Of a stretch of DNA of 24,028 nt, positions 21,075 to 21,141 are shown one piece after another. Source of the stretch: Escherichia coli (lineage in GTDB: Bacteria > Pseudomonadota > Gammaproteobacteria > Enterobacterales > Enterobacteriaceae); assembly GCF_003334305.1 (NCBI RefSeq), contig NZ_QOWS01000037.1; one strand, given 5' to 3'. A program made the translations under genes and the position numbers. The notes under the pieces were generated by a model that was given only the letters and a program-made list of their open reading frames with translations, was not told the origin of the DNA and did no database searches. The stretch's first letter is position 1; the number at the start of each line of letters is the position of its first letter.

Positions 21075-21101
21075 AAAAAAAACCCCCACATCATGTGGGG
21101 G
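21075..21101 (-). terminator. Rho-independent terminator of cpxP / CpxQ
   Basis: On the + strand AAAAAAAA-CCCCCACAT-C-ATGTGGGGG; on the minus strand a GC-rich hairpin followed by U8. Confidence 0.85.
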
Positions 21102-21132
21102 AAGACAGGGATGGTGTCTATGGCAAGGAAAA
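21075..21132 (-). ncRNA. cpxQ: CpxQ, sRNA processed from the cpxP 3'UTR
   Basis: The minus-strand segment between the cpxP stop (21142) and the terminator reads UUUUCCUUGCCAUAGACACCAUCCCUGUCUUCCCCCACAUGAUGUGGGGGUUUUUUUU, which matches the sequence I recall for CpxQ. The 5' end is set by RNase E cleavage and is approximate here. Confidence 0.6.
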
Positions 21133-21141
21133 CAGGGTTTA

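Follow-up and report, generated by a model that had tools for sequence, protein, structure and literature searches.

The 3' untranslated region of cpxP in an Escherichia coli genome matches the small RNA CpxQ and overlaps the attachment site of Wphi-type phages

The gene cpxP lies on the minus strand of the window, the whole 24,028-nt stretch of Escherichia coli DNA that was analysed. It is identical to K-12 cpxP (b4484); all of its E. coli matches are annotated as CpxP, and the Pfam family LTXXQ is found on CpxP homologues. An earlier note, made from the letters of the DNA, had placed 67 nt between the stop codon of cpxP and a U8 terminator, and its coordinates are exact: the 3' untranslated region (3'UTR) runs from the first base past the TAG to the final U of U8 (21141..21075, minus strand) and reads, on the RNA strand, UAAACCCUGUUUUCCUUGCCAUAGACACCAUCCCUGUCUUCCCCCACAUGAUGUGGGGGUUUUUUUU. 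The note was silent on strand; the minus strand is that of the feature. The whole 3'UTR is 67 nt long, and the annotated mature RNA corresponds to its last 58 nt, 21132..21075. The features of the locus are the following.

21722..21736, plus strand: perfect match to the CpxR-box consensus GTAAA-N5-GTAAA, a candidate site in the cpxR-cpxP divergent promoter region
21142..21642, minus strand: cpxP coding sequence from the list of open reading frames, the parental mRNA of the small RNA (166 aa; stop TAG at 21144..21142)
21133..21141, minus strand: 9-nt spacer UAAACCCUG from the stop codon to the processing site (K-12 cpxQ begins 9 nt past the cpxP stop)
21132..21133, minus strand: predicted RNase E processing site, CCCUG/UUUUCC, placed by the K-12 5' end, with U at +1, +2 and +3
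21075..21132, minus strand: mature CpxQ, 58 nt, UUUUCCUUGCCAUAGACACCAUCCCUGUCUUCCCCCACAUGAUGUGGGGGUUUUUUUU, 57/58 identical to the K-12 ncRNA cpxQ (b4716)
21114..21130, minus strand: 5' seed region, CpxQ nt 3-19, UUCCUUGCCAUAGACAC, which pairs with published target sites and is invariant in 81 sequences
21103..21119, minus strand: small internal hairpin, nt 14-18 (AGACA) with nt 26-30 (UGUCU) around the 7-nt loop CCAUCCC, in both the minimum-free-energy and the centroid fold
21075..21101, minus strand: Rho-independent terminator, found by terminator scan and by folding, an 8-bp hairpin (21101..21083, six G-C pairs) followed by U8 (21082..21075)

The first three bases of the spacer form a second in-frame stop, TAA, and its CCCUG is 98-100% conserved by column. 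Tandem in-frame stops, TAG and TAA (21139..21144, minus strand), thus end cpxP, and the TAA is not kept in other genera. Many complete E. coli chromosomes match the 901 nt around the 3'UTR at 100% identity, and this stretch is present in all 5426 complete genomes; the 67-nt 3'UTR is itself carried by 5426 of 5426. Within the 3'UTR there is also an 11-nt direct repeat, CCCUGUUUUCC at 21127..21137 and CCCUGUCUUCC at 21100..21110, whose copies are identical at 10 of 11 positions and lie 27 nt apart. The first copy overlaps the RNase E processing site. A repeat of this quality is matched in 25 of 5000 composition-preserving shuffles, and both copies are invariant across the Enterobacteriaceae.

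The earlier note had read the 3'UTR as encoding CpxQ, and comparison with the curated K-12 record bears this out. MG1655 carries an ncRNA cpxQ (b4716) of 58 nt at 4106330..4106387, which starts 9 nt past the cpxP stop; the window RNA matches it at 57 of 58 positions, in the same place and on the same strand relative to cpxP. The sole mismatch is at 21091 in the terminator loop, which reads GAU here and GCU in K-12. Most E. coli records have GAU (the best match to the window is at least 99% identical in 4190 records and 95-99% identical in 1235), which is dominant in other genera too. Locus, strand, length and 5' end are common to the window RNA and the CpxQ described from E. coli K-12 and Salmonella (Chao & Vogel 2016; Grabowicz et al. 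2016), as are the seed, the internal hairpin and the terminator; the K-12 RNA differs by the one loop base. It is therefore almost certain that the RNA after cpxP is CpxQ, the RNase E-processed 3'UTR small RNA of the Cpx response. The identification is correct, and CpxQ is already known and well studied, so that its recognition here adds nothing new on the Cpx response; its practical value lies in annotation. CpxQ resembles SroC, SdhX, NarS and MalH, which are likewise cut by RNase E near a stop codon and bound by Hfq at the terminator (PMC9438474; PMC5222698), but these RNAs have other parental genes, seeds and regulons.

Conservation was assessed in 80 loci from different enterobacterial species, fetched by the CpxP protein alone, which together with the window give 81 sequences. 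Because the loci were picked by protein, their choice carries no bias as regards the UTR. The first 31 nucleotides of CpxQ (21132..21102) are 100% identical in 81 of 81 sequences, and identity is 94% in the terminator hairpin and 99% in U8. The corresponding values are 82% for the cpxP coding sequence, 69% for its third codon positions, and 38% for the 50 nt past the terminator. One extra U in the U-run is the only frequent change within the 5' part. The claim that the region is "conserved-looking" thus holds on the 81-sequence comparison, although conservation cannot be read from a single sequence, as the earlier note had done. Beyond this sample the core UUCCUUGCCAUAGACACCAUCCCUGUCUUCCCC persists in more distant cpxP loci, whose CpxP proteins are 48-62% identical; such orthologues were reached by a search of representatives and contig look-ups, since a word-indexed protein search returned near-identical CpxP only. 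One of these loci (L097, GCA_053545295.1, 1998-2067; CpxP 48% identical) carries a diverged CpxQ in which the 5' seed UCCUUGCCAUAGA is the only survivor and the middle part has been swapped for UAGGACACUUUUUGUCUACC. This single locus suggests, from sequence comparison, that the 5' seed may be the most constrained module of CpxQ.

The predicted fold of the 3'UTR consists of the small AGACA/UGUCU hairpin and the terminator, and a hairpin followed by a U tail is the usual 3' module for Hfq binding. The 67 nt fold with a minimum free energy of -17.4 kcal/mol, matched by 5 of 200 shuffles (z = -2.35). The region can accordingly be called structured, as had been proposed, but the signal is modest and comes mostly from the terminator. 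Terminator stems vary across species (CACAUGAUGUG, CUCAUGAUGAG, CUCCUUAAACGGAG and CGCCUACCACGGCG), and they do so by compensation: three terminator pairs are altered on both sides (20 cells), and no shuffle of 500 reaches the observed covariation score. All five pairs of the internal hairpin are invariant, and covariation therefore speaks neither for nor against that hairpin.

Published target sites can be placed against the seed of the window RNA. CpxQ nt 4-11 pair with the cfa 5'UTR at GGCAAGGG, which contains GGCAAGG, with C11 opposite G-135, the pair that Bianco et al. probed by compensatory mutation in cfa (PMC6755755); reproduction of its register confirms the numbering from the CpxQ 5' end. 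Positions +299 to +314 of the nhaB coding sequence pair with CpxQ nt 3-18, and the duplex includes a G:U pair with U7. In E. coli this pair has been numbered 312 (PMC10250213); counted from the annotated AUG it lies at +310, and the difference of 2 is read as a numbering offset rather than as a discrepancy. The Shine-Dalgarno region of skp, AUGGUAAGGA, pairs with CpxQ nt 4-13. In a seed-only energy scan of nhaB, skp and cfa, equally good values were obtained with 13, 13 and 12 of 30 shuffled sRNAs, respectively. Generic hybridization energy is thus not discriminating, and the pairing checks confirm published sites but do not predict them. Duplex scans with the full-length sRNA yielded long, unrealistic duplexes in which the terminator was unfolded, and these were set aside.

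Within the window the CpxR-box consensus is matched exactly just once, at 21722-21736 between cpxR and cpxP, where, on established knowledge, CpxR would bind. A scan of 20900-21900 revealed no sigma-70-like promoter on either strand, which is consistent with production of CpxQ by processing rather than by separate transcription; readings of the locus as a small ORF, an antisense RNA or an internal promoter were considered and dropped. The RNase E motif derived by TIER-seq is RN|WUU, with U+2 dominant, and the CpxQ processing site was among those detected in Salmonella (PMC5222698). The letters at the site, G|UUUU, provide U at +1 to +3, yet the base at -2 is U where the consensus has a purine. 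RNase E release, Hfq dependence and target repression had been stated in the earlier note, and all are supported by the literature (PMC9438474; PMC4817254; PMC6755755; PMC10250213). RNase E, aided by Hfq, cuts CpxQ from the cpxP 3'UTR, and the RNA acts as the non-coding branch of the Cpx response, repressing nhaB, skp, agp, ydjN, fimA and cfa (PMC9438474). E. coli CpxQ reduces the levels of Skp and CpxP (PMC4817254), and the natural RNA carries a 5'-monophosphate and has a half-life of more than 16 min (PMC10250213).

These elements can be assembled into a scheme in which position, identity with b4716, the terminator, conservation, terminator covariation, seed complementarity and the CpxR box are taken from the present analysis, and RNase E cleavage, Hfq dependence, target repression and Cpx induction from the literature. 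Envelope stress would activate CpxA and CpxR, and CpxR-P would drive the cpxP promoter by way of the box at 21722-21736. The transcript would run through cpxP and terminate at the hairpin and U8 (21101..21075). RNase E, with Hfq, would then cut between G21133 and U21132 to leave a stable 5'-monophosphate RNA, the terminator and U-tail of which would be held by Hfq. Its invariant nucleotides from about 3 to 19 (UUCCUUGCCAUAGACAC) would pair with targets, leading either to a block of the ribosome-binding site (skp) or to RNase E-dependent decay (the nhaB coding sequence and the cfa 5'UTR). Synthesis of inner-membrane and envelope proteins would fall, and the CpxP protein would meanwhile work in the periplasm.

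Detection of the RNA by covariance models depends strongly on the model. A model (R1) built from 44 distinct orthologues, with zero Escherichia sequences among them, and searched with filters off, gives a single match to the window, at 21141..21075 on the minus strand (97.6 bits, E 4.6e-24); the runner-up, at 15.1 bits, is the palindromic terminator read on the other strand. A match to an Rfam CpxQ model had been proposed in the earlier note as a check. Searched over the whole window at gathering thresholds, Rfam 15 returns four unrelated matches and none at the cpxP 3'UTR; at E<=10 over 20950-21300, the RNA strand shows nothing beyond chance matches of 13-20 bits that are due to the terminator, with NsiR1, RyhB and OmrA-B among the families. 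The proposed check is therefore inapplicable as written. The sense-strand match is missing because the relevant model appears to be reversed, and not because CpxQ is absent.

That model is RF02628 (Hrs1), the one Rfam family related to this locus. It matches the window on the plus strand, 21075..21147, antisense to cpxP, with 44.5 bits (E 1.4e-7), short of its gathering score of 56.4. The A7 at the head of the model consensus and the G+C hairpin after it amount to a terminator in reverse. Among ten loci, each oriented with cpxP on the plus strand, the model matches the minus strand right past the stop codon in eight, and gives no match at E<=0.001 in the other two. Scores above threshold are seen in three distant loci (L092, L093 and L094; 83.4, 74.7 and 64.6 bits), again antisense to cpxP; Salmonella diarizonae, at 49.7 bits, and the remaining Enterobacteriaceae sampled stay below it. 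In Erwinia amylovora, from which it was described, hrs1 is a 74-nt, Hfq-dependent RNA of the cpxP-fieF spacer, confirmed by Northern blot (PMC4070566). The same source gives it the orientation of cpxP and fieF ("> > >") and a Rho-independent terminator (PMC4070566).

Hrs1 of E. amylovora thus shares with CpxQ a position directly past the cpxP stop in the cpxP-fieF spacer, Hfq dependence, and homologous sequence. Hrs1 is the CpxQ orthologue, and Rfam RF02628 appears to describe the RNA as its reverse complement; unlike CpxQ itself, the model lies on the wrong strand, and its score in E. coli is below threshold. No paper in the searchable literature names both Hrs1 and CpxQ. Since the model appears to be reversed and stays below threshold in Escherichia, Salmonella and most of the Enterobacteriaceae sampled, CpxQ is missed there by automated pipelines, which in Erwinia-like genomes would put it on the wrong strand. 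The assertion that an ORF-only annotation overlooks the RNA proved sound, in that no feature lies under these bases in the E. coli RefSeq/PGAP rows. Among the E. coli records looked at, cpxQ (b4716) is annotated only in the curated K-12 MG1655.

An additional property of the locus is its overlap with a phage attachment site, which adds the following feature.

21072..21118, minus strand: 47-bp identity with attP, the attB of Wphi-type P2-like phages, comprising CpxQ nt 15-58 plus ATC (att comparison)

In Wphi (AJ245959.1) the sequence GACACCAUCCCUGUCUUCCCCCACAUGAUGUGGGGGUUUUUUUUAUC, located between ogr and int, is identical to the window at 47 of 47 nt. The 67-nt 3'UTR matches 62 phage records, all of them P2-like (Peduovirus); L-413C-like Yersinia phages, Salmonella phages and cdt-V-carrying prophages are among the phages that have the att core. 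The order in lysogens, as observed in E. coli K_EC180 and in the cdt-V prophage of O157:H43 T22, is cpxP, full CpxQ (attL), int, C, cox, the remainder of the prophage, D, ogr, truncated CpxQ (attR), fieF. Since attL keeps the full CpxQ, an intact cpxQ is regenerated upon integration. The att site of the window is unoccupied, as judged from the fieF promoter region, which follows directly and is K-12-like. In 5426 E. coli genomes 6100 copies are found, from which 674 extra copies are inferred, and overlap with the Wphi-type att accounts for additional partial cpxQ copies in some E. coli genomes. A Wphi-type integrase lies just downstream in 6 of the 80 species representatives.

Phage papers refer to the site as "cpxP-fieF" or give its position in MG1655 (PMC3032704; PMC3448106). 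No paper found in the searchable literature links it to CpxQ; the lone match for CpxQ together with "integrase" concerns a lambda-att cloning method, and CpxQ is not named in any of the top-ranked matches on prophage integration at the site. Phage attB sites are found in the 3' ends of other RNA genes, such as those for tRNA and ssrA tmRNA and, for P2-like phages, cyaR and rybB, where, as here, the phage copy restores the gene. The cpxQ attB stands apart from these: its host gene gives an sRNA cut from a 3'UTR, and theirs are RNA genes in their own right. The overlap adds a 3'UTR sRNA to the RNA genes that serve as phage integration targets. The copy carried by Wphi-type phages is a 5'-truncated CpxQ that contains most of the internal hairpin and the complete terminator and lies about 110 nt past ogr on the same strand. 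It is conceivable, if unlikely, that an Hfq-binding fragment of the ogr 3'UTR, arising in infected cells or, in lysogens, from attR, could mimic CpxQ, compete with it or titrate it. Were this so, late-gene expression of the phage and the inner-membrane stress response of the host would be connected.

The att overlap bears on whether the conservation described above reflects an sRNA at all. The 3'UTR might be a passive terminator region of cpxP, kept alike by the needs of termination or by homogenization of the att site through integration and excision, and having no sRNA function. The 3' 44 nt of CpxQ do, with 3 further nt, make up the 47-bp Wphi-type att core, and most of the fold signal is that of the terminator. 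Yet nt 1-14 and the CCCUG of the spacer lie outside both the att core and the terminator and are 98-100% invariant across 80 species; since they are equally invariant, the att core cannot account for the conservation. The terminator stem, moreover, is the part that varies, by compensation. Trans-acting repression has been documented in E. coli with compensatory mutations (PMC6755755; PMC4817254), and existing Northern blots refute a purely passive region, which we regard as very improbable.

Two other accounts accept a functional RNA but differ from the CpxQ assignment in its strand or its origin, and both seem still more remote. An RNA on the plus strand, antisense to the cpxP 3'UTR, would follow from the orientation of the Hrs1 model, which matches that strand of the window at 21075..21147 (44.5 bits) and exceeds its threshold, anti-cpxP, in three distant loci; but the A7 and G+C hairpin of its consensus are a terminator read backward, and the plus strand has neither a U-tail past the hairpin nor a promoter-like site. 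CpxQ might instead be transcribed independently from a promoter of its own within the 3' end of cpxP. Some 3'UTR sRNAs, MicL and DapZ among them, do have internal promoters, but a sigma-70-like promoter is absent from 20900-21900. An RNA on the plus strand is further opposed by the paper that described hrs1, which gives the orientation of cpxP and fieF and a Rho-independent terminator (PMC4070566), and in published work on CpxQ the stable species is seen only on the cpxP strand. As to a separate promoter, endogenous CpxQ bears a 5'-monophosphate and is processed by RNase E (PMC10250213; PMC9438474), and it begins with U, a disfavoured start nucleotide for transcription (PMC10250213). [quoted passage not shown]

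The four unrelated Rfam matches in the window, all above threshold, are the following.

23875..23952, plus strand: naRNA4/CssrE (78.6 bits)
18829..18870, plus strand: ES036/CssrF (46.2 bits)
5119..5176, plus strand: ClpQY (hslVU) promoter element (63.6 bits)
455..507, minus strand: L31 (rpmE) ribosomal-protein leader (60.1 bits)

Matches to "plasmid" records were considered as mobile copies and rejected; they are taken to be mislabelled chromosomal sequence, since two of them proved on inspection to be chromosomal fragments and several of the other "plasmid" records have lengths of 4-5 Mb. The two PLSDB entries inspected, NZ_CP039131.1 (L088, Pseudomonas sp. A2 unnamed4) and CP022659.1 (L089, Salmonella pRM11060-1), carry the chromosomal sodA-cpxA-cpxR-cpxP region and seem to be pieces of chromosome that were mislabelled or misassembled. 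In NZ_CP039131.1 fieF-pfkA is next to cpxP, and in CP022659.1 an integrase lies directly past cpxP.
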